A stretch of 64,000 nucleotides of DNA, from positions 21,002 to 85,001 of the forward strand of contig JAOAJX010000003.1 in assembly GCA_026413945.1 (NCBI GenBank), written 5' to 3'. Below, one piece after another: positions 26,762-40,191 of this stretch (its first letter is position 1; each line of letters starts with the position of its first letter). Position numbers and translations under genes: made by a program. Below the pieces are notes generated by a model. The model was not told where the DNA came from. It worked only from the letters and a program-made list of their open reading frames with translations, and did no database searches. This DNA comes from Candidatus Iainarchaeum sp. (lineage in GTDB: Archaea; Iainarchaeota; Iainarchaeia; Iainarchaeales; DTGL01).

Positions 26762-28009
26762 TTAACTGCTAAAAACTAAAACTTTGCCACGCGAAAGCTT
26801 GAATTTTTCAGAGCTTTTCTTTTCGTTTTCATTTTTCTCAAATTTTATTGTATTCCTTTTTGGATCAACTTCCACAATCTTTCCAAGCCATTTTCCAGAA
26901 GTATCATAAGCAGGCAAACCTATCATGATTTTTGTTGCCTTTCTTGTAATGTCTAAAACATCAGCCAACTTAAAAGCTATGAGCAAGAGAACAAAACAAG
27001 CCATTATTGATAGAAGCATAAAATTAAGGTCTTCATTTCCAGCTATGACCAAAGTTGCTGCGTCCGCAATTATCCAGACTACTAGCACAGATGCGATATA
27101 TAGTGTGTCCATTCTAAGCATGTATGCTTTTTTGAGATGTAAGTGATCCGCAATTCTACCCAAGCCAACGCAAATAGCAGCTATAGCAAAGAAAAGATAA
27201 GAGCCTTGAACAGCTTTTAAGTACTTGCCGCTATCAAAGAATGCAATTGGGTCAGAAATTGCTGCCTGGGCTATAGTATATATGCCCAGAATAGCTATTA
27301 CCAAGCTTCCAAGATAAAAAAGAAAAGATGTTCTTTGCGGAGATAAACTTCTGATAAGTTCCCTGTTCCACTTTGCAATCTTTACTTCTATGCCAAGCCC
27401 TTTCATAACTAAATAAATGCCAACGATGAAGAAAACACCTCTAATAAATAGGCCTTCAATTTCAAGCGCCAGAGTTATTGCATAGAATAAAAATATTAGG
27501 CCAGGTATGCCAAACACAATTCTTGCAATATACGGGTCGCTTAAGGCCTCTTTTATTGTATAGTATGCTGACTCAACTTGCTTTGCCTGCTTAACGATAA
27601 CAACTTCCTTTGAAATTATTTTTGAGCGCGAATTAAGTATTGGAATAACCTGATCATCTTCGGCCCCATCTGTTACCAATATAATGCCTTCAAAGGAATA
27701 TTGTTTCTCAAGCTCATCAAGCTGCTCATTTAGCTTCTGATCTGATTTAATGCCAGATTTACCGTGACCTGTTATTGTCACAACCTCAAGATTTTCAAAG
27801 TCTTTTTTAATTTCATCATACATTTTTACAGCTGCAAAGATGCAATTTGCATCACTCTCAGTTGGATCTGCAAGAAGAAGCTTCTGTGCAGCTTCTATAT
27901 TTTTATCTCTGCCTATGACAGGCCCTTCCACGCGTGCCTTTCTTCCTAAGTCATTGTCTCGGTCAACACAGAGAATGATTGTAGAAGGTTTCTTTGACAT
28001 TACCACCAC
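26762..28009 (-). CDS. DUF373 family membrane protein with C-terminal PRC-barrel-like domain
   Basis: LCVDRDNDLG, DPTESDAN, VTDGAEDD, VVKQ-like IVKQ; C-terminal IGLPAYDTSGKWLGKIVEVD. Confidence 0.88.
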   Translation of the reverse strand: MVVMSKKPSTIILCVDRDNDLGRKARVEGPVIGRDKNIEAAQKLLLADPTESDANCIFAAVKMYDEIKKDFENLEVVTITGHGKSGIKSDQKLNEQLDELEKQYSFEGIILVTDGAEDDQVIPILNSRSKIISKEVVIVKQAKQVESAYYTIKEALSDPYIARIVFGIPGLIFLFYAITLALEIEGLFIRGVFFIVGIYLVMKGLGIEVKIAKWNRELIRSLSPQRTSFLFYLGSLVIAILGIYTIAQAAISDPIAFFDSGKYLKAVQGSYLFFAIAAICVGLGRIADHLHLKKAYMLRMDTLYIASVLVVWIIADAATLVIAGNEDLNFMLLSIMACFVLLLIAFKLADVLDITRKATKIMIGLPAYDTSGKWLGKIVEVDPKRNTIKFEKNENEKKSSEKFKLSRGKVLVFSS

Positions 28010-28105
28010 ATTAACTCCTTAATTTTTAAAGATTACTTATTTAAACATTCCACTTCTAAAATAATAGTAGGTGCACTATTATTTATTTTTTGCCCCCGTG
28101 ATATT

Positions 28106-29080
28106 ATGGAAGGGAAAGAACGAAAAAAAGAGCGTTCTTATGCTTTAATTGCGTTTATTCTGCTTTTAGCCTTCATAATATATGCTAACAGAACTTCCTT
28201 AAGCGAATATTATCATGAGTTTCCCTGGCTTTTTGTTGTTTTATTTGTGCTTTTCTTGTTTTTTATGGCAGGCCTATTCGGGAAAGCTTTGATAGAGCTT
28301 AGGGAATACGAGCGTGCCGTGATACTTAGATTTGGTAAGTTCAATAGGGTTGGGGGCCCAGGCTGGACATTGGTGTTGCCTTTTATAGAGTCTCACATAC
28401 TAGTTGACCTTAGGACAAAAACTCTAGATGTTGAAAAGCAAGATGTCATAACGAAGGACTCTATAGAGGTAAAGATCGACGCAGTTATCTATTTGCGTGT
28501 TAAGAAAGACAAAGAAAGTGTTGCAAAATCAGTTCTTGAAGTTCAAAACCTAGAGCAAGCTTCACGCACATATATAATGGCTGCGCTCCGTGATGTCATC
28601 GGAGCAATGGATTGTGCAGATCTAATCTCAAACATAGAAGCAGTGAACACCTATCTGCATGAAACGCTATCTGAAATAACAAAGCAATGGGGGGTTGAGG
28701 TTGTGGCAGTGCAGATAAAAGACCTAGATTTACCAGAACCGATACTAAAGGCAATGCATGAGCAAAAAGCAGCAGTGCAAGAAAAACTCGCTAGGCAGCA
28801 ACGCGCAGAAGCACAAAAGATTGAAGTTGAAACAATAAATCAGGCTGCATGCAGACTTAACGAAAATGTTCTTAACTACCTCTATATAAAAGCCTTAGAA
28901 AAGATTTCTGATGGGCAAAGCACAAAAATTTTCTTCCCAGTGCAATTCACGGAGCTTGCACAGGCAATTTCAAACAGCATCGGCTCGAAAAACTCTAACA
29001 TTGAGCCCCTGCTGAAAAAGGCAATTCAGCTTAATCTGGAGAAAGCAATAAAAAAGGCAAAAAGAAAAGGCAAAAAGTAA
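28106..29080 (+). CDS. SPFH/band 7 (stomatin-like) protein
   Basis: EYERAVILRFGK, VDLRT, QDVITKD, WGVEVVAVQIKD. Confidence 0.93.
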   Translation: MEGKERKKERSYALIAFILLLAFIIYANRTSLSEYYHEFPWLFVVLFVLFLFFMAGLFGKALIELREYERAVILRFGKFNRVGGPGWTLVLPFIESHILVDLRTKTLDVEKQDVITKDSIEVKIDAVIYLRVKKDKESVAKSVLEVQNLEQASRTYIMAALRDVIGAMDCADLISNIEAVNTYLHETLSEITKQWGVEVVAVQIKDLDLPEPILKAMHEQKAAVQEKLARQQRAEAQKIEVETINQAACRLNENVLNYLYIKALEKISDGQSTKIFFPVQFTELAQAISNSIGSKNSNIEPLLKKAIQLNLEKAIKKAKRKGKK

Positions 29081-29087
29081 GTATAAA

Positions 29088-30026
29088 CTACATGCGAATT
29101 ATCATAAATGCAAGCACCAAAAGATAAATGAGCGAAAGAGAAAAAGCAAAAAGATCATAACCCACTTTAGAGGCGGCTTCTATTGCTGCACCTACAAGAA
29201 GCGAAATGACTGCTGCTGCAATTATTATAAAAGAGTCGATCGTTATGCGTTCAATCTCCTTTGTGAAAAGCTTTTTTCTCGTAACTGCAACAGATATTAA
29301 GGCCCCGCCTATTGCTCCTAAAAAGTAGCCCATAAATTCAGGGACACCATGCGGTATAAGTCCCAAAAACTTGAAATGGTCTTTTGCCATAATTGTTTGG
29401 CCAACCCATGTTCCAACAACGCTTGCGTTCCAGCCTATTAGGAAAATAGCGCCCGCGCCAAAGACAAAAGACATTATGAGCGCCACAACCAAGACCCCAA
29501 AGTTGTTTTCAAATATCAAGGAAAACCAATAAAAGAACTCACCAAAAGTCGCCTCTTCAGAATCAACAGCTTTTCCTGTTTTGGCAGCAACGTTTGCAAC
29601 ATAATCAAGCGCTTTTTGCTGTTCGCTAAAAATATATCCCTTGTTGGGTAGATAAATGCAACTTTTTGAGCTACACACTAAAGCATAATCACTCTCAGGA
29701 AGCGTCAAATACAGAATCACATACCCCGCAATTACGCCCATGGTCATATAGGAGTAAACTTGTATTAGCTCAACGTTTCTCTCAAAGAATTTCTCACAAA
29801 GCACAGGCACACGAGCTTCAGCTTTTTCTTCTCTTAAAAGGACATTGTGTATCAAAGGCATAGAGGCTATTGTTATGAATGCAATTGCAAGAAGACCGGC
29901 ATTTTCACCCCTAAAAAAAGGATATATTATAAGATTGGAGCAAACGCTTACCACTAACCCAAAAAAAAGCATCAGGTAAGGTTTCTTTATTACCTGCTTG
30001 CCGCCAAGTAGCGCTTCTAAAACCAT
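29088..30026 (-). CDS. SpoIIM (stage II sporulation protein M)-family membrane protein
   Basis: IFENN, WNASVVG, PHGVPEF, GAAIEA; multi-TM. Confidence 0.85.
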   Translation of the reverse strand: MVLEALLGGKQVIKKPYLMLFFGLVVSVCSNLIIYPFFRGENAGLLAIAFITIASMPLIHNVLLREEKAEARVPVLCEKFFERNVELIQVYSYMTMGVIAGYVILYLTLPESDYALVCSSKSCIYLPNKGYIFSEQQKALDYVANVAAKTGKAVDSEEATFGEFFYWFSLIFENNFGVLVVALIMSFVFGAGAIFLIGWNASVVGTWVGQTIMAKDHFKFLGLIPHGVPEFMGYFLGAIGGALISVAVTRKKLFTKEIERITIDSFIIIAAAVISLLVGAAIEAASKVGYDLFAFSLSLIYLLVLAFMIIRM

Positions 30027-30129
30027 TATGGCACCTTAGAATATTTTAAATATCTTTGCAATGCTATATTGAATATAACATTGTTAATTTATTAGGTTTA
30101 TGCTTTTTTTATTTCTTATGGCGATAAAA

Positions 30130-30687
30130 ATGAAGCGCATTGTTGTGCCAGGGGAAGACCTAGCAGAAGTTGAAGAATTTATCGAAGGCGAAAATACTTA
30201 TCAAGAGGGTGAAAAAGTTCGTTCCGCTGTGGTGGGATTTGCAACTTATGACAGCAAAAGCCACGAGGTTAAGGTTGTGCCCGACAAAAGGGTAAAAGTT
30301 TTCGAGATAGGCACAAAAGTTATTGGGCAGGTTGTTGCCTCCAGAAAGACACGCATACTTGTGAATATAGCCCCAATAGAATGCAATGATGAAAGAATTG
30401 TTCTGCCAAAAACGAAGGCAACTCTTTTTGTTTCAAAGATTGCTGACAGGTTTGTTAAGGAAATTAGTGAAGAGTACAAGATAGGCGATATTATTGTTGC
30501 TGAAATAGATGACATAAAGCCATATGGGCTTTACCTTCGCACCAACAAACCCAACCTTGGTGTTTTGAAAGCTTTTTGTTCGCGTTGTAGGTCACCTTTA
30601 CACTACAATAATGCTAAGCTTTTGTGCAAGAAATGCGGCTCAATAGAGCATAGAAAAATAAGTTCGGAATATTCTATTAGGGATTAA
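30130..30687 (+). CDS. csl4: Exosome RNA-binding protein Csl4
   Basis: VVPGEDL..VEEF, S1 domain IGDIIVA, Zn ribbon CSRC..CKKCG..RKIS. Confidence 0.93.
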   Translation: MKRIVVPGEDLAEVEEFIEGENTYQEGEKVRSAVVGFATYDSKSHEVKVVPDKRVKVFEIGTKVIGQVVASRKTRILVNIAPIECNDERIVLPKTKATLFVSKIADRFVKEISEEYKIGDIIVAEIDDIKPYGLYLRTNKPNLGVLKAFCSRCRSPLHYNNAKLLCKKCGSIEHRKISSEYSIRD

Positions 30688-30707
30688 TATATGTTGCATG
30701 AGGTGTT

Positions 30708-30986
30708 TTGATGGAGATTGAAATTTTGAGGATGGAGAAAGATTTGCTCGAATTCAAAATGAAAGGTGAAAGGCACACTTATCCACAGCTTCTGAAACAT
30801 TATCTTTTGAAGAATCCAGACGTCGCTTTTGCAGCTTATAAACTTGAGCATCCTCTTAACAAAGATAGCCTATTCATAGTGAAAGTAAAGAAAGGCAATC
30901 CACTTCAAGCACTAAAAGATGCAAATAAAGAGATAATCGCTGAGATTGATGAGTTTGAGCAGAAGCTTAAGGAAGCCCTTAAATAA
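30708..30986 (+). CDS. rpoL: RNA polymerase subunit L (Rpo11)
   Basis: GERHT, VAFAAYKLEHPL; follows csl4; GAGGTG SD. Confidence 0.94.
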   Translation: MMEIEILRMEKDLLEFKMKGERHTYPQLLKHYLLKNPDVAFAAYKLEHPLNKDSLFIVKVKKGNPLQALKDANKEIIAEIDEFEQKLKEALK

Positions 30987-31560
30987 TAGCGCCTGTGAAA
31001 AAAACATCAGGGCTATTGGCATAGATGATGGCTTTTTCAAACAAAAGCAGACCAGAAGCACAAGAATAGTTGCCGTTTTAATGAGAGTCGATTCTCGAAT
31101 AGAAGGAATACTTTTTTCAGATGCGGCAGTTGATGGTCTAGATTCAACACAAAAAATTGTTGAAATGCTTTCCAGCAATAGGCGTAAATTCATTGGACAA
31201 GCAAAGGCGATTTTCCTTAGCGGAATAAACTTTGCCGGATTCAACATAGTCGATACAAATGAACTTTATTCTGTGCTTAAGGTTCCTATAATTGTAGTTT
31301 TTAGAAAAAGGCCAAGAATGCAAAAAATAGCAGGAGCACTAAAACACTTTAATGACTTTGAAATAAGGGCACAGCTTATAAAAAATGCAGGCAGAATTTA
31401 TAAGGCCGAGAAAATATTTTTCCAATGTAAAGGCATAAAGCCAAAAGAAGCTTCAACTCTTATAAAGCTTTTCTCTTTGCACTCAAATCTTCCTGAGCCG
31501 GTTAGAATTGCACATCTCGTTGCAAGCGCATCCACACTTGGAAGAAGCACTTCGCCTTAA
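30946..31560 (+). CDS. DUF99 / endonuclease dU (EndoV-like) family; start ambiguous
   Basis: IGIDDG, VDGLDST, GINFAGFNIVD, LPEPVRIAHLVAS. Confidence 0.9.
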   Translation: MMSLSRSLRKPLNNSACEKNIRAIGIDDGFFKQKQTRSTRIVAVLMRVDSRIEGILFSDAAVDGLDSTQKIVEMLSSNRRKFIGQAKAIFLSGINFAGFNIVDTNELYSVLKVPIIVVFRKRPRMQKIAGALKHFNDFEIRAQLIKNAGRIYKAEKIFFQCKGIKPKEASTLIKLFSLHSNLPEPVRIAHLVASASTLGRSTSP

Positions 31561-31593
31561 ATTTTTGATGTTATAATTATTTGCTGTGATTGT

Positions 31594-32463
31594 ATGTCCT
31601 CGAGGGAAAAGATTAGGCCTGGAAGGAAATTAAAAAAAGAGAAGGGCAAAAGCAGAATATTGCTTGAAAGAATTACTAATAAGTTGAAATGGATTGATCC
31701 TTTCACTTATACTGATATATTTCTAGAGAAAATTGGACATAAGAAAAATAAGCTCGTTGCATGGCCTGTTGAGATCTTGGTTGCTTTCATTACCGCTTGG
31801 CTTTTATACCTAATATTCGGCTTTTTGCTTGGCACAAAGACACCCGCTGTGGTAGTGGTAAGCGGCTCAATGATACCAACCTTCTACAGGGGTGATATAA
31901 TGGTTTTGCAAGGTGCCACTTATAATTCCTTAAAAGCACCTGAAATTATTATCAACGAGAATATTGCTGGAAAACGCATCCGTGAATACGCTGTTTCATA
32001 CTGTTCTCTTAGCAATAGCGATGAGCTTGTTGAATGCTCAAAATACTTTTTGCAAAGATGCAAAAGTGGGATTAAAACAAAAAAAGTTTGCATTATAAAC
32101 ACAGGCGAATGCGTTGAAATTGGCAAAGATGGGGATATTGTTGTTTATTTTTCTGATACGCTTCGCGAGCCAATAATACATCGCGTTGTTGTCAAGATTA
32201 AAGCAAAGGATGGCAATTTTGTTCTTACGAAAGGCGATAACGCCAACACAAATTGTTTCCTTGACCAAGATGGCGGCATAGCAAGTAGTGCTGTTCCTAT
32301 CGAATTACTTGATGGCAAAACTGTTTTTATGGTGCCTTACCTCGGCTATATCAAGCTTTTACTCATGGATGATCTCCCTTGCGTAATAAGCAACCTTATA
32401 AAGTCAGGCAAATATGATATTTGCACAAGATACTGGCCTGATGGCCGTCTTGGCTTTGGTTAA
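31594..32463 (+). CDS. Signal peptidase I (Sec11-type)
   Basis: VVVSGSMIPTFYRGD, IIHRVV, TKGDNA, VPYLGY. Confidence 0.92.
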   Translation: MSSREKIRPGRKLKKEKGKSRILLERITNKLKWIDPFTYTDIFLEKIGHKKNKLVAWPVEILVAFITAWLLYLIFGFLLGTKTPAVVVVSGSMIPTFYRGDIMVLQGATYNSLKAPEIIINENIAGKRIREYAVSYCSLSNSDELVECSKYFLQRCKSGIKTKKVCIINTGECVEIGKDGDIVVYFSDTLREPIIHRVVVKIKAKDGNFVLTKGDNANTNCFLDQDGGIASSAVPIELLDGKTVFMVPYLGYIKLLLMDDLPCVISNLIKSGKYDICTRYWPDGRLGFG

Positions 32464-32506
32464 GAAAAATGCTACTTTTTTAAACCTAAACTTTGTATTT
32501 TTTTAC

Positions 32507-33190
32507 ATGGTTACTGCTAGTGAGCTCATGGAGATTGGCTTTACTGAAGAACAGGCAAAATCACTTCTAGAAAATGATTACTTCAAGAAGCAGTATTGTC
32601 CATGGACAAAGGAGCGCCTAACAGTCAAAATAAATCTCATAATTTCATTTTATGGAATAAAAAATGCACAAAAAGTTTTTAGCGCAGTTTCACAATATCC
32701 GCAATTCCTTAGCACCGATCATGAAAAAGCACTCCTAAAAATCAATGAATTTATACCACAGCTCAAAAAAAACAAAATAGCGGAGCTTATTCTGGCAAAC
32801 CCTTACTTAGTTTCAATGGACTGCAAGAAAGCATTTTCGTCAGCTTTAAAGGTTTATGGCAAGGAAAATGCCCCTGATGTTTTGCTATCTCTCCTTACGT
32901 TTCCTGGCTTCTCAAGGAAAAACCATAAAAAGAATCTCCAGAAGCTTCTTAAGATTTATGGTGATGAGTACAAACAAAGCATAATTCAAGCAATGCTTCG
33001 CGTTCCAGATTTTCCAAACTTCAATCACAAAGAAGCTATAAAAAAAGTCTTTAGGGAAGGCAAGGCAGCCGGGCTAACTGATAAGCAGTGTGTTGAGATT
33101 CTTCTTAATATTGGTGCAAAGGCTGATTTTTCGCTAAAGAGTGCAAAAGAAGCAAAAGCAGCATTTGAAAAGATTGTTTCAGCGGAATGA
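32507..33190 (+). CDS. Hypothetical protein with four 34-aa helical (mTERF-like) repeats
   Basis: Likely start ATG 32507 (track 32414); repeat period visible in the translation. Confidence 0.7.
   Translation: MVTASELMEIGFTEEQAKSLLENDYFKKQYCPWTKERLTVKINLIISFYGIKNAQKVFSAVSQYPQFLSTDHEKALLKINEFIPQLKKNKIAELILANPYLVSMDCKKAFSSALKVYGKENAPDVLLSLLTFPGFSRKNHKKNLQKLLKIYGDEYKQSIIQAMLRVPDFPNFNHKEAIKKVFREGKAAGLTDKQCVEILLNIGAKADFSLKSAKEAKAAFEKIVSAE
32627..33034 (+). repeat. Four tandem degenerate 34-codon protein repeats
   Basis: KINLIISFYG..QYPQFLSTDHEK / ALLKINEFIP..ANPYLVSMDCKK / AFSSALKVYG..TFPGFSRKNHKK / NLQKLLKIYG..RVPDFPNFNHKE; Pro at position 25 in all four. Confidence 0.8.
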
Positions 33191-33234
33191 AGCTTAGCAA
33201 TCCCTTTTTAAAAGAATTTAGCGAACCACTTTTT

Positions 33235-33621
33235 ATGGCTCAACAGGATCCATTGGCAGATTTTGAGGAAAATTTTGAGATTGGTACTGAAAAGCAATTT
33301 AAGAGAACTCCCGCAAAGGAATGCTACTTAAATGAGATAACAGGCAGCGAGCGCAGGATTGCGGCAATTGTTAGTATTATTTCTCTGAACCCCGAAGCAA
33401 AAACCGTGCTTGTATCTGATGGTACTGCAGAAGCAATTGCAATTTGCGAAAGATCTGAAATTTTTAGCCGCTTTAAAAAAGGAGCCATCATGCGGATAAT
33501 TGCAAACCCATTGAGCACAGCACCCATAAAGCTGAACCTCGAGATAGCACAAGAATTAAAAGATTTTGATGCTAATCTATTCAGAAAAGTAAAACAAGAG
33601 TGGGGAAAATTAAGGCAATGA
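33235..33621 (+). CDS. Small OB-fold protein, RPA14/Rpa3-like
   Basis: KRTPAKE..I....R.....I......V.VSDGTAE pattern of archaeal small RPA subunits; next to PCNA (track start 33187). Confidence 0.72.
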   Translation: MAQQDPLADFEENFEIGTEKQFKRTPAKECYLNEITGSERRIAAIVSIISLNPEAKTVLVSDGTAEAIAICERSEIFSRFKKGAIMRIIANPLSTAPIKLNLEIAQELKDFDANLFRKVKQEWGKLRQ

Positions 33622-33622
33622 G

Positions 33623-34378
33623 GTGATTTATATAAGACTTGTATTTGAGAATGCAAATGCATTCAGGAAGAACATCGAGGCAATAGCAGCCTTGATTGAT
33701 GAAGCCGAGTTTATCGTAAGTGAAAAAGGCTTAACACTCAAAGCAACGGACCCGAGCCAAATAGCAATGGTTGACTTTGAAATGCCTAAAAACTCATTTA
33801 AGGAATTTCAAGTTGATAAGGAATTAAAGCTCGGGGCTGATATGGACTACTTCAGGCAGATAATGTCAAGGGCAAAGGCAGATGATGTTATCGTGCTTGA
33901 AATTGGTGCAGATAAAGCCGCCCTTTCTATAAAATTTCTAGGTAAATCCTCAAGAAGTTTTTCAATGCCTTTGATTGACGTTTCAAAAGGCCAAATCCCA
34001 AATCCAAAAATAGAGTTTGAAGCTGAGCTTTCTTTGAAAGCCGGGCTCATTCAAGACTCTTTGAAGGACGCAGAAATACTCTCAGCCCACATAATCTTTG
34101 GAGTTAGAAACGGAATCTTTTATGTATCTGCAAACAGCAGCAGAGGAACATTTGCCCACGAGGTTCAAAAAAACGATAGCTCAATTAAAAAGTTTGAAGC
34201 GACTAAAGATTGTAAAGCAATGTTTCCGCTTGACTATCTCAAAAATATGCTGAAAGTCCTTTCTAGCGAAGACGAGCTGAAACTTTTTCTAAAAAGTGAT
34301 GCGCCACTCAAGCTCGAGTTTATGAATGAAAAGGCAAGAATAACGTATTATCTCGCGCCAAGGATTGATGTTGAGTAG
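33623..34378 (+). CDS. pcn: PCNA sliding clamp (copy 1, canonical)
   Basis: LIDEAEF, LKATDPSQIAMV, PLID, FPLDYL, YYLAPRI. Confidence 0.96.
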   Translation: MIYIRLVFENANAFRKNIEAIAALIDEAEFIVSEKGLTLKATDPSQIAMVDFEMPKNSFKEFQVDKELKLGADMDYFRQIMSRAKADDVIVLEIGADKAALSIKFLGKSSRSFSMPLIDVSKGQIPNPKIEFEAELSLKAGLIQDSLKDAEILSAHIIFGVRNGIFYVSANSSRGTFAHEVQKNDSSIKKFEATKDCKAMFPLDYLKNMLKVLSSEDELKLFLKSDAPLKLEFMNEKARITYYLAPRIDVE

Positions 34379-34395
34379 CTTTCAGTTGAATGCAA

Positions 34396-35274
34396 TCAGA
34401 GTGCTATTAATGCTACTCCCACGGCGGCAAGTAATGCACCCAATGCTTTTAATTTGAGGCTTTCTTTGCTAAAATCCTCTTTAAAAAAATTTGGCAATAA
34501 GCTGCTTAAAGCATAAGATAAACTAAAAACTATGATGGGTTGTATGCCGCCAACAGCACCTATGAGAGCTGCTTCTGCCATATGCAATGAATTTAATCTG
34601 AGAATGTGCCCAAATAAAAAGCAAACTTGGCTTGCAAATGCAATTTTTATTAGTTTTGGCTTTTCCCTAAAATTTTCAAAAAGTTTTTTCAGATAAATTG
34701 GCGAAAATGCTGTTATCGCCAAAACAGCAATTATCATATTCCATAAGAAAACACTCCATGCATCATATTTTTGAAGCACGGACTTAAGAGTTATGAAATA
34801 TATTGCAAAAATAAATGAGCTTGCTGTAGCAGCGATTGACCAGCGATCAAACTTTAGCCCACTTTTTTTTGAAACAAGCAGTGAAGCCGTAACTATGCTA
34901 ATTACACCTAAAACTTTAACTGCACTTGGCCTTTCTCCTAGAAAAATTATGGCTAATATCATTATGAATACTGGTGCAGTTTGCAGCACAACAATAATGC
35001 GAGAGGCTTCAGATTTTTGCATTATCTTGTAATAAAGAGCACCACCCACCATGCCAAGAAGAGTTGCGATTGATAGTGCTAAAAATGACTCTCCATCCAA
35101 CATTGCTGGCGGCCATATAATAGTTAAAATTGCCAGAATTGGGGCCATAAGAATATTACATGCAGCAATGCTCAAAAGTGGGTTTTTAGTGTATCTGTCA
35201 ACAAGAATTTTATCAAATATGTTTGCAAATGAGAAGAAAAATATTGCGGAAATAATAAGTAATAGCCAAAGCAT
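34396..35274 (-). CDS. EamA/DMT family transporter
   Basis: About 10 TM in two repeats; SEASRI..., IFLGER. Confidence 0.88.
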   Translation of the reverse strand: MLWLLLIISAIFFFSFANIFDKILVDRYTKNPLLSIAACNILMAPILAILTIIWPPAMLDGESFLALSIATLLGMVGGALYYKIMQKSEASRIIVVLQTAPVFIMILAIIFLGERPSAVKVLGVISIVTASLLVSKKSGLKFDRWSIAATASSFIFAIYFITLKSVLQKYDAWSVFLWNMIIAVLAITAFSPIYLKKLFENFREKPKLIKIAFASQVCFLFGHILRLNSLHMAEAALIGAVGGIQPIIVFSLSYALSSLLPNFFKEDFSKESLKLKALGALLAAVGVALIAL

Positions 35275-35384
35275 TATTCTTGCTATAATGGAAAGGTTTA
35301 TATATTTTAAAGCCGTTGCTATTTTTCAAAAGCAGGGAAACAATTTAAATTCTTCTCACCCTATTCTTAATAGGCGGTGTTGGG

Positions 35385-36107
35385 ATGATACAGGTTTCGA
35401 AAGTCCAGCCTTTTCAAGCAGCAATTCGTGCAGTTGCAAGCTTTATATCTGAAGCGAATTTCAGGTTCAACGAAAATGGTCTTTCTCTAAAAGCCATAGA
35501 TCCAAGCCAGATAGTGCTAGTAAGCTATACTGCGCCAAAGGATTTTTTCAGCAAGTTTTCCGTTGAACCAGCGCTAATCGGCTTAGATATGGAAGAGCTC
35601 AATAAGGTTGTAAAAAGGGCATCATTAACAGATACCCTTTCCATAAGCATTGAAGACTCCTTCTTGAGCATTTCTGTTTCTGGGACGCTTGAAAGGACAT
35701 TTAAGTTGCCGCTTATTGATGTGCTTGAAGAAGATCCAGAAATACCAGAAATACAGCACGATGCGAAGATTGAAATACAGGCACGCCTTCTTCAAGAAGC
35801 TCTGAAGGATGCTGCGCTTTTCGAGAGTAGCGTTGTTTTGCGGGTTGAGAACTCAAAGCTTTTCATTGAAGCGAGAGGATCTCACGGAATGCTTAAAACA
35901 GAAGCAAAGCATCAGGATCTTGTGAAAGTAAAGGCAAAAGCAAACGTTGTTGGAAAATATTCCCTTAATTTCCTTGAAAACATTGTAAGGGAAGCTGATC
36001 CGAACGAAATGATAACAATGGAGCTCAAAAACGAGACACCAATGAAAATAAGCTACAATATAGGCTCAACCAAAATACAATTTTACCTAGCACACATGAT
36101 TTTGTAG
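35385..36107 (+). CDS. pcn: PCNA sliding clamp (copy 2, divergent C-terminus)
   Basis: FISEANF, LKAIDPSQIVLV, LPLIDV, YSLNFL, FYLAHMIL. Confidence 0.93.
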   Translation: MIQVSKVQPFQAAIRAVASFISEANFRFNENGLSLKAIDPSQIVLVSYTAPKDFFSKFSVEPALIGLDMEELNKVVKRASLTDTLSISIEDSFLSISVSGTLERTFKLPLIDVLEEDPEIPEIQHDAKIEIQARLLQEALKDAALFESSVVLRVENSKLFIEARGSHGMLKTEAKHQDLVKVKAKANVVGKYSLNFLENIVREADPNEMITMELKNETPMKISYNIGSTKIQFYLAHMIL

Positions 36108-36110
36108 TTT

Positions 36111-37058
36111 CTAATGCAAGCGGCGGATTCTTTTGCCCAATTGCCTCTGTGTTCTTCCTGCAAAGAAACTCTTTTCTTCGGCACTCATTCCCTTGATTTT
36201 TGATAGGAGTCCACTCCATATGATGCCTTCCGAACATTTTAGGCCTAATCTTTTAGCAATTTCTTTTTTTGTTTGTTCAGTAGCATGATGTATTTTTCTT
36301 GAAATCTCTATTTCTTGGTCTGGTGTGCCACTGCTGCCATATGCCGCACTAATTCTTTGCATGACTTTACCAAAATCAAAAGTTGCTGCTGTCCTTACGT
36401 TTGCTGTCCTTTTTACAATCTCGTCTGGCCTCATTAACGTGAGCACATGGCGAAGATTTGCCCGTGTTTTAGCTGCTTTTTTGCCGCCACCACAGAGTTT
36501 CCTCAAAAATAGCAGTACTTTATCTTTTGAGACATGCCTTTCCTGGAAATGCAACAAATGACTTAAATAAGCAATATCGTCAATTCTTCTATGCCATGGC
36601 CTTGTTGGCGAAGCTGCGCCAAAAATCAGCTTTGCAACAAGGAAGTTTATATCTGGCAATATTACTATAAACTTGCCTGCGCTTTTTGTTTCAACAGGCA
36701 CCCTTAAGACAGGCACTTTGACGTCAGTAGCTTCAACATGTATGTAAATAGCTTCTTTGCCACCAATTTTGCACTCGAAAACGCACCTTCTTGGCTGCGT
36801 GTCAGAATGCCCTTTCAGCTCCCTGAATTTTGGCAAGCCTATTGTTCTTGCAATCTCATTCAAAACTTTTAATGCTTCATCTGGTTTGCCACTATAAAAC
36901 ATAGTGAAATCGAGGTCGTTTTCCCTTCTTTTTCTAAATTGCTCTGGCAGGTAAAGACCTATTGCAAGACCACCGCTTAACGCTAACCCCTTGTTTGATG
37001 CTGCTTTGACTAACAATGCAACTTCTTCCAGACTTATGCTCTTTGGTTGGGTTTCCAT
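36111..37058 (-). CDS. Pol-beta superfamily nucleotidyltransferase (AbiEii/DUF6036-like)
   Basis: LSGGLA...RR.NDLDF catalytic motif, LVAKL, R..DD. Confidence 0.68.
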   Translation of the reverse strand: METQPKSISLEEVALLVKAASNKGLALSGGLAIGLYLPEQFRKRRENDLDFTMFYSGKPDEALKVLNEIARTIGLPKFRELKGHSDTQPRRCVFECKIGGKEAIYIHVEATDVKVPVLRVPVETKSAGKFIVILPDINFLVAKLIFGAASPTRPWHRRIDDIAYLSHLLHFQERHVSKDKVLLFLRKLCGGGKKAAKTRANLRHVLTLMRPDEIVKRTANVRTAATFDFGKVMQRISAAYGSSGTPDQEIEISRKIHHATEQTKKEIAKRLGLKCSEGIIWSGLLSKIKGMSAEEKSFFAGRTQRQLGKRIRRLH

Positions 37059-37183
37059 AGGTAAGAATTACTTTGCTACCACTTAAATTTTTTTTGTTTA
37101 TCTTCTTAACATCAAACCTCTGCGGAAGTTAGAGGAAGCTAAGCCTAAAAGCTTTTAAAACAAGTTTGTTGGTGAAGCTTTTT

Positions 37184-38206
37184 ATGGTAGATTTCCCCCT
37201 GGAGGAACTATTTTTCTGTGCTCGTTATCCATATTCCGAGAGAGCAAAGAAAATTGTCAAACGCTTGAACCCATCTCTTGATGAGCTCGACTCAGCAACA
37301 AAAGGGCTTGCTAAGTCAATCCTACAAAAAGCTCTAATTGGTAAACCATACGATGTGCCTTTTCAAGACCGCGAGTCATTAAAGAGTGCTGTGATTGCGT
37401 ATCATGTTGCCAAGATAATGGTTTCAACTCTGGGAAATCACAAGTATTATTTCTACTTTTCACGCTCTATGCAGAGAGGCACGCTGAACTTTATAGAAAA
37501 ATCAAAAAAAGCTTCAGCTATAAGCCCTGACATAGAGGAGCTTGCAGATGATTTTGGCTTGAAATTTTATACAAAAGAAATGTCTGGCAAAACTTATTTT
37601 GAGCTCTCCGTCGTTGATTTCTTGAGTGCGCCTAGCAAAGAAGAGTCGCTTAAGCTAATAAATCAAAACATTTTTCAAGGAAAGATATGGCTGGATGAAA
37701 ACCGATTTTCAAGGTTTCTCTCTGAGAAAGCAATGAGCACAGTTTTATCCTCCCTTCCGGTAAGTAGTGTTGCAACAAAAGAAATACAAGAACTTGCTGT
37801 TGAAGCGCTAAAAGATTCAGTAATTAGCAGAAAGGAATCTTCCGCACTTGGCACGGATCTTCAGGCAATGCCGCCCTGCATGGAGCGTCTTTATTCAGAT
37901 CTTACTTCAGGGAATAAGCTTTCACATATGGAAAACTTTGCTCTTGCAGCATTTCTTGCAGCCATAGGTCTTTCTGAGGAAAAGATTTTGCAAGCATTTT
38001 CCCATGCGCCAAACTACGATGAAAAGGTTGCAAGGTATCATATTTCAAGAATTTTACGCGGAAAGCAAGGTAGAAATTATTTGCCTTTATCTTGTGCCAA
38101 GATGCAAAGCTATGGCTTCTGCATCGCAAACTGCAATGTCAAGAACCCACTGAATTATTACCGCAATGCCCTCAAATCAAAAGGTGGTGCTGTTGGCAGA
38201 ACTTAG
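37184..38206 (+). CDS. priL: DNA primase large subunit
   Basis: ARYPY, MPPCM, PNYDEKVARYHI, SC.KM...FC..C; GGTGA SD before ATG 37184. Confidence 0.93.
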   Translation: MVDFPLEELFFCARYPYSERAKKIVKRLNPSLDELDSATKGLAKSILQKALIGKPYDVPFQDRESLKSAVIAYHVAKIMVSTLGNHKYYFYFSRSMQRGTLNFIEKSKKASAISPDIEELADDFGLKFYTKEMSGKTYFELSVVDFLSAPSKEESLKLINQNIFQGKIWLDENRFSRFLSEKAMSTVLSSLPVSSVATKEIQELAVEALKDSVISRKESSALGTDLQAMPPCMERLYSDLTSGNKLSHMENFALAAFLAAIGLSEEKILQAFSHAPNYDEKVARYHISRILRGKQGRNYLPLSCAKMQSYGFCIANCNVKNPLNYYRNALKSKGGAVGRT

Positions 38207-39437
38207 AGAAGAAGATTTTCTTAGAGAGCACTTTAGGCGCTTTTACGCTTCAAATGAGATAAAAAGCGTTCCAAGTGTTGAGATGCGTGAATTCGGCATA
38301 GGTGCTTTTGGAAAGAAAATAGCGAGGAGGCATATAAGTTTCTCCACAAATAAAGACCTTAATTTTTTCCTAAGGACTGAGGTTCCATTGTTCATATCGT
38401 GCTCAGCCGCTTACTATAAGGATCCAGCAGCAAGGCCTATGGAGAGCAAAGGCCTTATTGGTTCTGACCTAGTGTATGAGTTTGATGCATCTGATGTTGA
38501 TTCCGACTGCAAACAGAAGCATGATTTCTGGATGTGCGAAAAATGTGGGAAAACATATAAGTTTGTTGCAGATAATTGCGACAATTGTGGTGGAAAACTT
38601 AGTCAGTTCAAATTTCCGTGTGAAAAGTGCATTGGCGAGACAAAGAAACAAACATTCCGCCTTATAAATATTTTGGTTGACGAGCTCGGCTTCAGCAATA
38701 TCTACTTAAATTTCTCCGGCAATGCCGGTTATCACGTGCACGTTCGTGATGCCGGAATAAAAGGACTTTCTCAAGATGCCCGCTTGGCAATAGTTGATTA
38801 TCTTACAGGGGAAGGATTTTCTTTCGAGAAGAGCGGCTTTGATTTTGAAAACTTGCTTTGCCCAAAAATTAATGAAGCAAAAGGCCTTCGGAAAAGGATT
38901 TTGGATCGCATGATTTTTTTTGTGTGTGAAAGCAGCTCTGATTGGTTGTTCCAATTTGGCAGTATTTCTTTGAGCACAAGCCAAAAGCGTTCTGCAAAGG
39001 TATTTGTTAGAAATATTGTTGAGAACCGCCAAAAGGCAGTTTTGCAGATTCAGAGCGGAGTGCTTCCTTTATTTGGCTCTAAAAGCATAGCTGCTTCTTT
39101 CTGGAAGGCCATTGCCGAAAACTCCTTGAGGCTGGAATCTTTTCCAATAGATAGGCAAACATCAGCAGATATTTATAAAATTGTTAGGGTGCCGGATACT
39201 TTGCATGGCTCTACTGGCTTTATTGCAAAGACAATAAGCGTTGACTTACTCAATGATTTTGATCCTTTTGAGCATGCTTTGGCTTTTGGAAATGGCCAAA
39301 TAAAGGTTTTTATTAGTAAGGCACCAGAATTTAAAATACAAGGCGCCAAATTTGGCCCTTTTGAAAAAGAGGAAGTGCAGCTTCCAGAAAATGCTGCGAT
39401 TTACCTCTTAGCAAAAGGTGTTGGGAAATTAGCTTAG
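38193..39437 (+). CDS. priS: DNA primase small (catalytic) subunit with Zn ribbon
   Basis: REFG, DLVYEFD, FSGNAGYHVH, IVRVPDTLHGSTG; likely TTG start 38193. Confidence 0.94.
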   Translation: MAELREEDFLREHFRRFYASNEIKSVPSVEMREFGIGAFGKKIARRHISFSTNKDLNFFLRTEVPLFISCSAAYYKDPAARPMESKGLIGSDLVYEFDASDVDSDCKQKHDFWMCEKCGKTYKFVADNCDNCGGKLSQFKFPCEKCIGETKKQTFRLINILVDELGFSNIYLNFSGNAGYHVHVRDAGIKGLSQDARLAIVDYLTGEGFSFEKSGFDFENLLCPKINEAKGLRKRILDRMIFFVCESSSDWLFQFGSISLSTSQKRSAKVFVRNIVENRQKAVLQIQSGVLPLFGSKSIAASFWKAIAENSLRLESFPIDRQTSADIYKIVRVPDTLHGSTGFIAKTISVDLLNDFDPFEHALAFGNGQIKVFISKAPEFKIQGAKFGPFEKEEVQLPENAAIYLLAKGVGKLA

Positions 39438-39439
39438 GG

Positions 39440-39994
39440 GTGTTGCTTATAGATTTTGATGAGCTTCGTAGGATTCACAGGCAGGAAAAAAGCAGCCAGC
39501 AGCTTTCAGAGATCGGAGAAGATTTTATGGTTGAGCTTAAAGCATACCTTGAAGAGAAAAAGGAGGAATATGTTAAGCATTTATCTGCTGGCGAAACACC
39601 TAGCGAGGATTTTTTTAATGTGCAGCGCATGGCAAAAGAGATACTTGAAATAAGGCAGAAGAAGATAATAAAAAAAGCCTTCCACGCTGCAGTTAGTGAA
39701 GATGAATTTGAAGATGAAAAGCTTACTGGGGAAGAGAAAAAACTTTTCTGCAATATATGCAAAATCGTTTCTGAATATCAGAAGTCAATAGACAAGCTTT
39801 TCTACGCAGAATCAAAAAAGAGGAAAAAGGATAGCAATTTAAATACAATTTCAGTCCAAATTATAGAAGAAGTGCCTGCTTTTGTTGGGCCCAATATGAA
39901 AGAATTTGGCCCTTACAAAAAAGGGCAGGTTGTTGAACTTCCCGAGGATGTTGCTGATATTTTGCTTTCGAGAAAAATTGCTGTAAAGGAGTAG
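39440..39994 (+). CDS. GINS subunit (Gins15/51-type)
   Basis: EIRQKKII, LTGEEK, B-domain VPAFVGPNMKEFGPYKKG; follows priS. Confidence 0.88.
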   Translation: MLLIDFDELRRIHRQEKSSQQLSEIGEDFMVELKAYLEEKKEEYVKHLSAGETPSEDFFNVQRMAKEILEIRQKKIIKKAFHAAVSEDEFEDEKLTGEEKKLFCNICKIVSEYQKSIDKLFYAESKKRKKDSNLNTISVQIIEEVPAFVGPNMKEFGPYKKGQVVELPEDVADILLSRKIAVKE

Positions 39995-40191
39995 TGATTT
40001 TTGTGACTGAATACGCGCAAAAAAAACATGCGCCTTTTTGGCGAATAAAATGTAATGCTTGTGGAAACGAGCAGGTTGTTTACTCCTGTGCTACCAGAAA
40101 AATAAAGTGCAATGTATGTAGTGCAATCTTAGCTGAAAGCACAGCACACAGAATAAAACTTACCGAAGCAAAAAAGCTTAGGGACTATTAG
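39994..40191 (+). CDS. rps27e: 30S ribosomal protein S27e
   Basis: F.RIKC..CGNEQVVYS....IKC..C...LA. Confidence 0.93.
   Translation: MIFVTEYAQKKHAPFWRIKCNACGNEQVVYSCATRKIKCNVCSAILAESTAHRIKLTEAKKLRDY

Follow-up and report, generated by a model that had tools for sequence, protein, structure and literature searches.

A repeat-protein gene beside the replication genes of Candidatus Iainarchaeum

The 64,000-nucleotide stretch of Candidatus Iainarchaeum sp. DNA analysed here (contig JAOAJX010000003.1, positions 21,002 to 85,001; below, the window, in whose coordinates all positions are given) belongs to the 0.95-Mb genome of a tiny DPANN archaeon of the symbiotic type and carries on its forward strand a gene for a 227-residue helical-repeat protein, P0001. 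An initial annotation, made from the letters alone, had described the gene as encoding an mTERF-like protein of 34-residue repeats that heads a replication cluster. The features of the gene and of its product are as follows.

32507..33190, forward strand, stop codon included: gene for the 227-residue mTERF-fold repeat protein P0001 (open reading frame (ORF) and translation)
32507..32626, forward strand: N-terminal cap, residues 1-40: degenerate opening unit that bears the family motif L-x-x-x-G-F-x-x-x-x-A-x-x-L, conserved in the family consensus
32627..33034, forward strand: four in-register 34-residue units, residues 41-176 (script motif check, periodicity, DSSP on the model)
33035..33187, forward strand: C-terminal cap, residues 177-227, formed by a final degenerate unit (G-L-T-D-K-Q-C-V-E-I-L-L) and a helix at the terminus
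32476..32484, forward strand: TATA-box-like element TTTTTTAAA, its centre 27 nt 5' of ATG 32507

Two candidate starts, 32414 and 32507, lie in frame with the stop codon at 33190 on the forward strand. Since the frame from 32414 runs into the 3' end of the signal-peptidase gene, and since the N-termini of relatives (M-x-x-x-x-x-L-x-x-x-G-F), including those of two same-genus orthologs and the wider family (M-V-T-x-x-E-L-x-x-I-G-F), agree with the later start, we place the initiation codon at ATG 32507, which yields the 227-residue product. The ratio of nonsynonymous to synonymous substitution rates (dN/dS) of the gene is 0.11 against one same-genus ortholog and 0.10 against another, with values of 0.02-0.17 for the neighbouring genes, and as judged from such comparisons 32507-33190 is a real gene kept by purifying selection. 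Its G+C content is 0.371, that of the window 0.380; the opposite strand holds no ORF of at least 50 residues within the limits of the gene, and an Rfam search over window positions 28000-40000 returned no RNA family. Upstream of the gene, TTTTAAA (32478-32484) is identical in all three same-genus orthologous loci, with the remaining spacer diverged in the most distant of them. The conserved TATA-like box suggests that the gene has its own promoter and that its mRNA would be leaderless or near-leaderless.

Four in-register units and two caps are predicted to form an mTERF-like solenoid

The four in-register 34-residue repeats described initially were reproduced by a script run on the translation, which set their limits at residues 41-74, 75-108, 109-142 and 143-176. 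Their reported signature was recovered as well: Tyr-Gly occupies positions 9-10 of three units and Pro position 25 of all four, an aromatic residue follows at position 26 or 27 in every unit (F, Y, F, F), and the [DN]-H-x-[KE] motif at positions 31-34 reads DHEK, DCKK, NHKK and NHKE, with His in 3/4. The partial units on either side, ELMEIGFTEEQAKSLL (residues 6-21) and AAGLTDKQCVEILL (187-200), were also recovered. Each unit follows one plan: a long helix closing on Tyr-Gly, a second helix, a short helix that starts from the invariant Pro, and then [DN]-H-x-[KE]. Pairwise identity between the units is only 5-11 of 34 residues. The BLOSUM62 self-score of the protein has a z-score of 5.96 at lag 34, and at lags 68 and 102 the values are 4.21 and 3.52; among 300 shuffled sequences the 99th percentile of the best-lag z was 3.73. 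The 34-residue periodicity exceeds chance.

AlphaFold2, supplied with the family alignment, gave a model with a predicted local distance difference test score (pLDDT) of 94.7 and a predicted template modelling score (pTM) of 0.84. Helices of the N-terminal cap span residues 4-10, 14-22 and 24-29 in this model, and DSSP assigns the unit helices to 35-49/55-63/65-69, 72-82/88-97/99-103 and 106-117/119-131/133-137; the fourth unit has 140-151/153-165, its short third helix being absent, and the C-terminal cap has 174-187, 192-202 and 210-226. The short third helix begins at the conserved Pro, and the N- and C-terminal partial units are modelled with the same fold as the full ones. This corresponds to the mTERF type of unit, which consists of two helices and a short 3-10-like helix, and the predicted structure of a canonical relative of 303 residues, P0011, has the same helix pattern in a more regular form. 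According to the model, about six three-helix units (N-terminal cap, four 34-residue units, C-terminal cap) would stack into a curved solenoid like that of MTERF1 and MTERF3.

The ten best Foldseek matches of the P0001 model in the PDB are all mTERF proteins (MTERF4, MTERF1 and MTERF3; E 4e-3 to 2e-2, prob 1.00), and nothing was returned at E <= 0.001. The whole modelled solenoid superposes better on solved mTERF structures than on any other fold, and for the canonical relative the superposition on DNA-bound MTERF1 runs from end to end. The runner-up structural class is the DNA-wrapping TALE/BurrH proteins; rRNA-bound mTERF proteins match almost as well structurally. No TPR, HEAT, PPR or PUF chain occurs among the best 12 of 48,161 chains, an absence from the top matches and not an exclusion of those folds. 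When the case that the initial annotation had named as fatal to its reading was checked, namely a TPR or HEAT fold devoid of mTERF similarity, mTERF similarity was found and the reading survived.

Sequence homology to mTERF proteins is detectable at the level of the family

The best Pfam match of P0001 is mTERF (PF02536; E 0.0024, 17.3 bits). This lies under the PF02536 gathering score of 23.1 bits, as do the scores of two close orthologs, 17.6 and 19.3 bits. No TPR, HEAT or Sel1 family matches P0001 in Pfam at E <= 1, and NCBIfam holds no family for it. A word-indexed search yielded two close relatives (identity 81% and 75%), of which one is named a hypothetical protein of a Candidatus Diapherotrites archaeon, and an exhaustive phmmer comparison with 1.84 billion representatives yielded 75 proteins at E <= 0.001 (query counted), 31 of them at E <= 1e-10. 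When 76 homologs were compared with Pfam, PF02536 was matched at E <= 0.01 by 55 and at 23.1 bits or more by 30, with 21 giving no match; the top scores were 50.1, 47.1 and 46.8 bits.

From these proteins we built a family profile of 54 sequences, the three close ones and 51 of the 74 other representatives, leaving out P0025, P0036 and 21 of the 28 weakest matches (P0050-P0077). Searched against all PDB sequences, the profile has its best match in mS93 of the Tetrahymena mitoribosome (6z1p_BY, E 1.9e-6), and eight human MTERF1 constructs come next (E 0.15-0.44). Sequence homology to known mTERF proteins is, by this profile search, detectable for the family.

The published mTERF motif signature, as set out in the part of the report on bacterial pTERF proteins that deals with it, comprises Pro at position 8 of the motif and a hydrophobic residue such as Leu at 11, 18 and 25 (PMC11417379). 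P0001 has the Pro in all four units and a hydrophobic residue at 11 in 2/4, at 18 in 3/4 (all Ala) and at 25 in 3/4; across the family repeats, Pro is present in 285/300 and the third residue after it is A, V, I or L in 268/300. Because P0001 falls under the PF02536 cut-off and keeps the heptads only in part, we assign it to an mTERF-related family as a divergent member and do not call it an mTERF in the Pfam sense. Since sequence and predicted fold agree, we regard it as an mTERF-type protein, albeit a short and divergent copy. The initial proposal of an mTERF-like helical-repeat solenoid in an archaeon is therefore supported both by the Pfam and profile matches and by the predicted structure.

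A patchy, accessory family of DPANN archaea

A hidden Markov model (HMM) of the repeat finds 318 repeat instances and recognises all 83 of the 83 family proteins, with 2-12 repeats per protein, longer members having more units. The consensus is (K/E)-V-Y-G-x-(N/T/S)-x-x-x-V-K-K-A-I-L-K-F-P-x-F-A-G-(L/Y)-(D/N)-H-x-R-V, in which the Tyr is conserved in 250/261 instances, the His in 253/262 and the Arg in 204/251. In P0001 the model recognises three of the four units at E <= 0.01. Canonical members end in a conserved C-terminal SPYVP...RISQ...EPPL...RKRL, a tail that is missing from P0001 by both consensus and alignments. The family is basic, with a median isoelectric point (pI) of 9.73 and a pI above 8 in 77 of the 83 members.

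All relatives to which an organism name is attached are from DPANN archaea (Diapherotrites/Iainarchaeum, Micrarchaeota, Nanoarchaeia, Woesearchaeota and Pacearchaeota); a genome labelled Methanosarcinales that holds a relative falls into the phylum of the Woesearchaeota genome. The names given to these proteins are 'hypothetical' or 'uncharacterized', with the exception of P0025, named as a CopG/Arc/MetJ-type regulator. Counting genomes by a profile match at E <= 1e-5, in samples that were all DPANN, we found the family in 15/215 genomes of the window's own phylum (6/58 of the high-quality ones), in 30/301 of the phylum of a Micrarchaeota genome, which include the centre genome, chosen for having the gene, and one unpublished genome (G248), and in 8/301 of the phylum of the Woesearchaeota genome, the centre genome counted. 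The largest number of paralogs in a genome is four, of which two stand in tandem. Altogether, this DPANN family is patchy, accessory and without a family name.

Among the relatives, nine near-identical arrays (at least five repeats, inter-repeat identity at least 0.55; P0001 is not among them) have changes between repeats that cluster at unit positions 17, 19, 22 and 23 (0.49-0.68, with a mean of 0.27), which surround the invariant P-x-F. Such clustering at four positions is the pattern that would be expected of a repeat-wise reader. The repeat HMM alignment contains no TALE-like hypervariable pair, and the repeat-coded recognition raised by the initial annotation is not borne out in that form; the repeats of P0001 itself have diverged at all positions and are uninformative here.

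Several further observations concern individual members. In the genome with four paralogs (G215; loci L031 and L033 lie on one Micrarchaeota contig), each has 6-9 near-identical repeats, an indication that repeats and genes of the family have been duplicated recently. P0025, a metagenomic protein of 467 residues, has an N-terminal extension of about 200 residues with a faint likeness to sigma-70 region 3 (Pfam E 0.039; TIGR02393 E 0.0026). At another locus (L025, about 5947-6978 of contig G122:C12) a family member lies amid genes for a VirB11-like ATPase and TrbC/VirB2-type pilins, a neighbourhood that may be a conjugative or surface-appendage module. Among proteins of 623-2000 residues we found no fused or longer forms of the family, which is weak evidence, and viral contigs gave no relative of the family member P0013 in a search that reaches close relatives only. 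Matches in PHROGs were weak, inconsistent and to proteins of unknown function, and the one PADLOC match, a weak one to pAgo (E 0.0068), had no single stretch over threshold; both were taken as repeat noise.

Proposed function and its alternatives

On balance, 32507-33190 encodes a short, divergent member of the DPANN mTERF-fold repeat family and not a replication component; we rate as more probable than not the reading as a whole, in which the protein may be a roadblock or regulator that binds short double-stranded DNA (dsDNA). That the protein binds nucleic acid of some kind is quite likely, given the fold, the charge and the published relatives; that the ligand is dsDNA is, by analogy with those relatives, a nearly even call. 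In the mechanism that we propose, the protein would be made from its own promoter and its solenoid would grip nucleic acid along one, putatively basic, face. The likeliest ligand would be a short stretch of dsDNA, bound in the manner of human MTERF1 and bacterial pTERF, and the bound protein would act as a site-selective roadblock or transcription regulator.

We favour dsDNA because the canonical relative can be superposed along its whole length on DNA-bound MTERF1, because the second-ranking structural class likewise wraps DNA, and because the prokaryotic mTERF-like proteins tested in print, pTERF1 and pTERF2, bind DNA motifs with nanomolar affinity, as stated in the binding results of that report (PMC11417379). 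Since the family is patchy and variable in both copy and repeat number, a regulator or roadblock with lineage-specific targets would fit better than a core RNA-maturation factor.

Some observations weigh against this interpretation. P0001 keeps the mTERF heptad rule only partly. It is basic, as had been said of it (pI 9.39; K+R 36, D+E 25), and yet 19% of the 54 long ORFs of the window, whose median pI is 8.56, are as basic or more so; its basicity is only mildly distinctive and, in an AT-rich genome, weak evidence of nucleic-acid binding. The nine arrays with clustered changes are not independent, three being from one genome, and P0001 is not involved in them. Finally, with regard to expression, the stretch is present in one DNA sequencing run, possibly the one it was assembled from, and no RNA run is listed.

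A serious rival has the solenoid clamping structured RNA, such as ribosomal RNA (rRNA) or a transfer RNA precursor, and acting in ribosome assembly or RNA maturation. RNA-acting mTERFs include MTERF4 with NSUN4, the mitoribosomal mTERFs (mS93 and algal proteins) and several plant mTERFs. The best sequence match of the family profile is indeed mS93, and rRNA-bound mTERFs come structurally nearly equal to the DNA-bound ones. One would, however, expect a ribosome or RNA-maturation factor to occur in the majority of a lineage's genomes, and the family is found in 15/215, 30/301 and 8/301; within the genus, moreover, the gene is missing from its syntenic slot in some species (see below), and copy number (up to four paralogs) and repeat number (2-12) vary widely. 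RNA-related neighbours of family members are not recurrent either, and the prokaryotic relatives tested in print bind dsDNA, as given in the published binding data (PMC11417379). We therefore rate a structured RNA ligand, and with it this role, as rather unlikely.

Next in rank is a protein-binding scaffold with no nucleic-acid role, the mTERF likeness being architectural only. Repeats of the TPR, HEAT and Sel1 types bind peptides or proteins. Against such a scaffold, the link to mTERF is significant in sequence at the family level and so goes beyond shape, a Pfam search to E <= 1 returns none of the TPR, HEAT and Sel1 families, the family has a strongly basic character (median pI 9.73), the second-best structural class (TALE/BurrH) is also DNA-binding, and no conserved partner gene recurs across loci. 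We regard a pure protein scaffold as possible but unsupported, and as very unlikely. The third alternative, a factor linked to replication, is taken up together with the neighbouring genes below.

Relation to known repeat proteins

The eukaryotic mTERFs (PF02536) comprise human MTERF1, MTERF3 and MTERF4, mS93, algal mitoribosomal proteins and plant proteins, all nucleus-encoded and targeted to mitochondria or plastids. P0001 is a distant relative of these proteins and would work as they do. The gene described here is archaeal and has no organelle to serve, so that nucleus-encoded organelle targeting does not apply. The archaeal repeats differ from the eukaryotic ones in being strictly tandem and far more regular, with a signature of their own (V-Y-G...K-A-I-L-K-F-P-x-F-A-G-x-D-H-x-R-V), and canonical archaeal members carry the family-specific SPYVP...RISQ tail. 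P0001 differs further in being shorter (about six units), in falling under the Pfam cut-off and in having partial heptads.

TALE and TALE-like proteins (AvrBs3, PthXo1, dHax3, BurrH) consist of two-helix units of 33-35 residues in which a hypervariable pair, the repeat-variable diresidue (RVD), reads one base. In contrast, the archaeal protein has, in the model, three-helix units, and the repeats of its family show no hypervariable residue pair. With TPR proteins it shares the 34-residue period and the all-helical make-up; it departs from them in having, in the model, three helices per 34-residue unit instead of the TPR helix-turn-helix, and in matching no TPR family in Pfam at E <= 1.

The closest published comparison is pTERF, presented in the passages of its report that introduce it as the first prokaryotic mTERF-like class, bacterial and made of 3-11 strictly tandem units (PMC11417379, Hu et al., Nucleic Acids Res 2024). 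In the binding section of that report, pTERF1 binds ACTNNNAGTC with a dissociation constant (Kd) of 1.87 nM and pTERF2 binds a different motif; the pTERF genomes described there are all bacterial, mostly from Bacillota, and the main text does not contain the word 'archaea' (PMC11417379). The archaeal family resembles pTERF in being prokaryotic, in its strictly tandem, three-helix mTERF-like units (2-12 here, 3-11 in pTERF), in coming from metagenome-assembled genomes and in a predicted fold like that of MTERF1. However, pTERF1 is described in the motif analysis of that report as lacking the conserved features of the mTERF motif, Pro at position 8 and the hydrophobic heptads (PMC11417379), whereas the archaeal family keeps the Pro (285/300) and reaches the Pfam mTERF cut-off, and is set apart from pTERF by this published description.

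Both the plant and the animal literature treat mTERFs as eukaryotic inventions for the control of organelle genomes. In the relevant statement of a 2026 survey, mTERFs are absent from bacterial genomes (PMC12977773), and a 2021 review states in the corresponding passage that such cofactors are unrelated to bacterial proteins (PMC7909791). Full-text literature searches found no paper linking mTERF to DPANN lineages and, for mTERF together with archaea or prokaryotes, no description of an archaeal mTERF among the matches listed. As far as sequence and models indicate, the archaeal family extends the mTERF fold to Archaea, with many members over the Pfam mTERF cut-off. What is new is the archaeal family, since mTERF-like prokaryotic DNA binders were already known from bacteria (pTERF).

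The family is of moderate interest for mTERF origins and as a possible compact nucleic-acid-binding scaffold. If its members bind DNA sequence-specifically, they would offer small natural frameworks, 2-12 units long, on which to engineer DNA readers, and a concrete test set for the origin of the eukaryotic mTERFs. A bolder reading, speculative and in our view quite unlikely, is that the DPANN family consists of modular, repeat-by-repeat DNA readers with their specificity at positions 17, 19, 22 and 23 around the Pro-x-Phe helix, that it is nearer to the eukaryotic mTERFs than the published pTERF description suggests, and that it represents the prokaryotic stock of these proteins and not a late import.

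Genomic context and the replication genes

The neighbours of the mTERF-like gene are archaeal (PCNA, primase large subunit PriL, archaeal signal peptidase, exosome Csl4-like). On its 5' side, in order, stand an exosome Csl4-like gene, a small ORF, an Endo-dU family gene and the gene for archaeal signal peptidase I. Its 3' side has a small ORF, PCNA, an EamA-type transporter (opposite strand), a second PCNA, a nucleotidyltransferase-like ORF (opposite strand) and the primase large subunit. The located genes of the 3' side are the following.

33187-33621, perhaps from 33235, forward strand: small ORF of 128-144 residues, no Pfam or NCBIfam family
33623-34378, forward strand: first PCNA (Pfam)
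34396-35274, opposite strand: EamA-type transporter
35385-36107, forward strand: second PCNA
36111-37058, reverse strand: ORF of 315 residues between the second PCNA and PriL, with a faint likeness to AbiEii nucleotidyltransferase (E 0.077)

The initial annotation had placed the gene immediately upstream of an RPA-PCNA pair. It does precede the small ORF and then a Pfam-confirmed PCNA; the small ORF matches no family, and in a language-model atlas it lies near clusters of small archaeal OB-fold proteins (RepA/RPA-type, Ten1, RMI2; score 0.93-0.94), a lead only. Because the orthologs of the small ORF, 115-149 residues long, start near an internal Met, the ATGA overlap with the stop codon of the mTERF-like gene may not be its true start.

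Two further same-genus genomes have the same gene order including the mTERF-like gene, making three with the window. In a third comparison genome of the genus only 48 nt, and no mTERF-like gene, separate the signal-peptidase gene from the OB-fold gene; a fourth has an unrelated 461-residue GIDE/LemA membrane protein in the slot; and a fifth, as well as one sister-genus genome, lacks an mTERF-like gene in the interval from the signal-peptidase gene to PCNA. The family profile has no match in four of the seven genomes of the genus, all four of which hold the neighbouring signal-peptidase gene. Since the content of the slot, which in the window is bordered by 32464-32506 and 33187-33621, varies within the genus in this way, we regard the mTERF-like gene as an accessory insertion in a conserved cluster. 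A comparison of 22 loci in different genomes shows family members among unrelated housekeeping genes, without a conserved neighbour: three families recur, at two loci each, which is chance-like, and none of them is PCNA, an OB-fold protein or primase. The position beside the replication genes looks accidental.

A replication pausing or fork-barrier role has been proposed for some animal mTERFs. That P0001 is likewise a replication-linked factor, acting alongside primase, both PCNAs and the OB-fold protein, for instance as a barrier or pausing factor at the fork, could draw on its position directly 5' of the OB-fold ORF, PCNA, the second PCNA and PriL in the window and two same-genus genomes, and on some relatives that have Hel308-like or XPD-like helicases, RNase HII or a PD-(D/E)XK nuclease nearby, but this role is barely plausible and, as far as comparative context goes, largely refuted, given that the cluster stands intact without the gene in same-genus species (the 48-nt spacer, or GIDE/LemA instead), that the profile is blank in 4/7 genomes of the genus with the signal-peptidase gene present in all four, that no PCNA, OB-fold or primase neighbour recurs across the 22 loci, that inspection by eye found no canonical PCNA-binding (PIP) motif in the protein, and that the conserved TATA-like box points to a promoter of its own. 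The place of the gene at the head of a replication cluster, offered initially as a hint to its function, does not hold as such. For the window, the analysis gives a better annotation of the gene and removes the suggested link to replication.

Of the remaining neighbours, the 315-residue AbiEii-like ORF is absent from the corresponding position of three further genomes in the genus, and is for this reason probably another accessory insertion. The two PCNA paralogs around the EamA-type transporter form an arrangement conserved both within the genus and in a sister genus.

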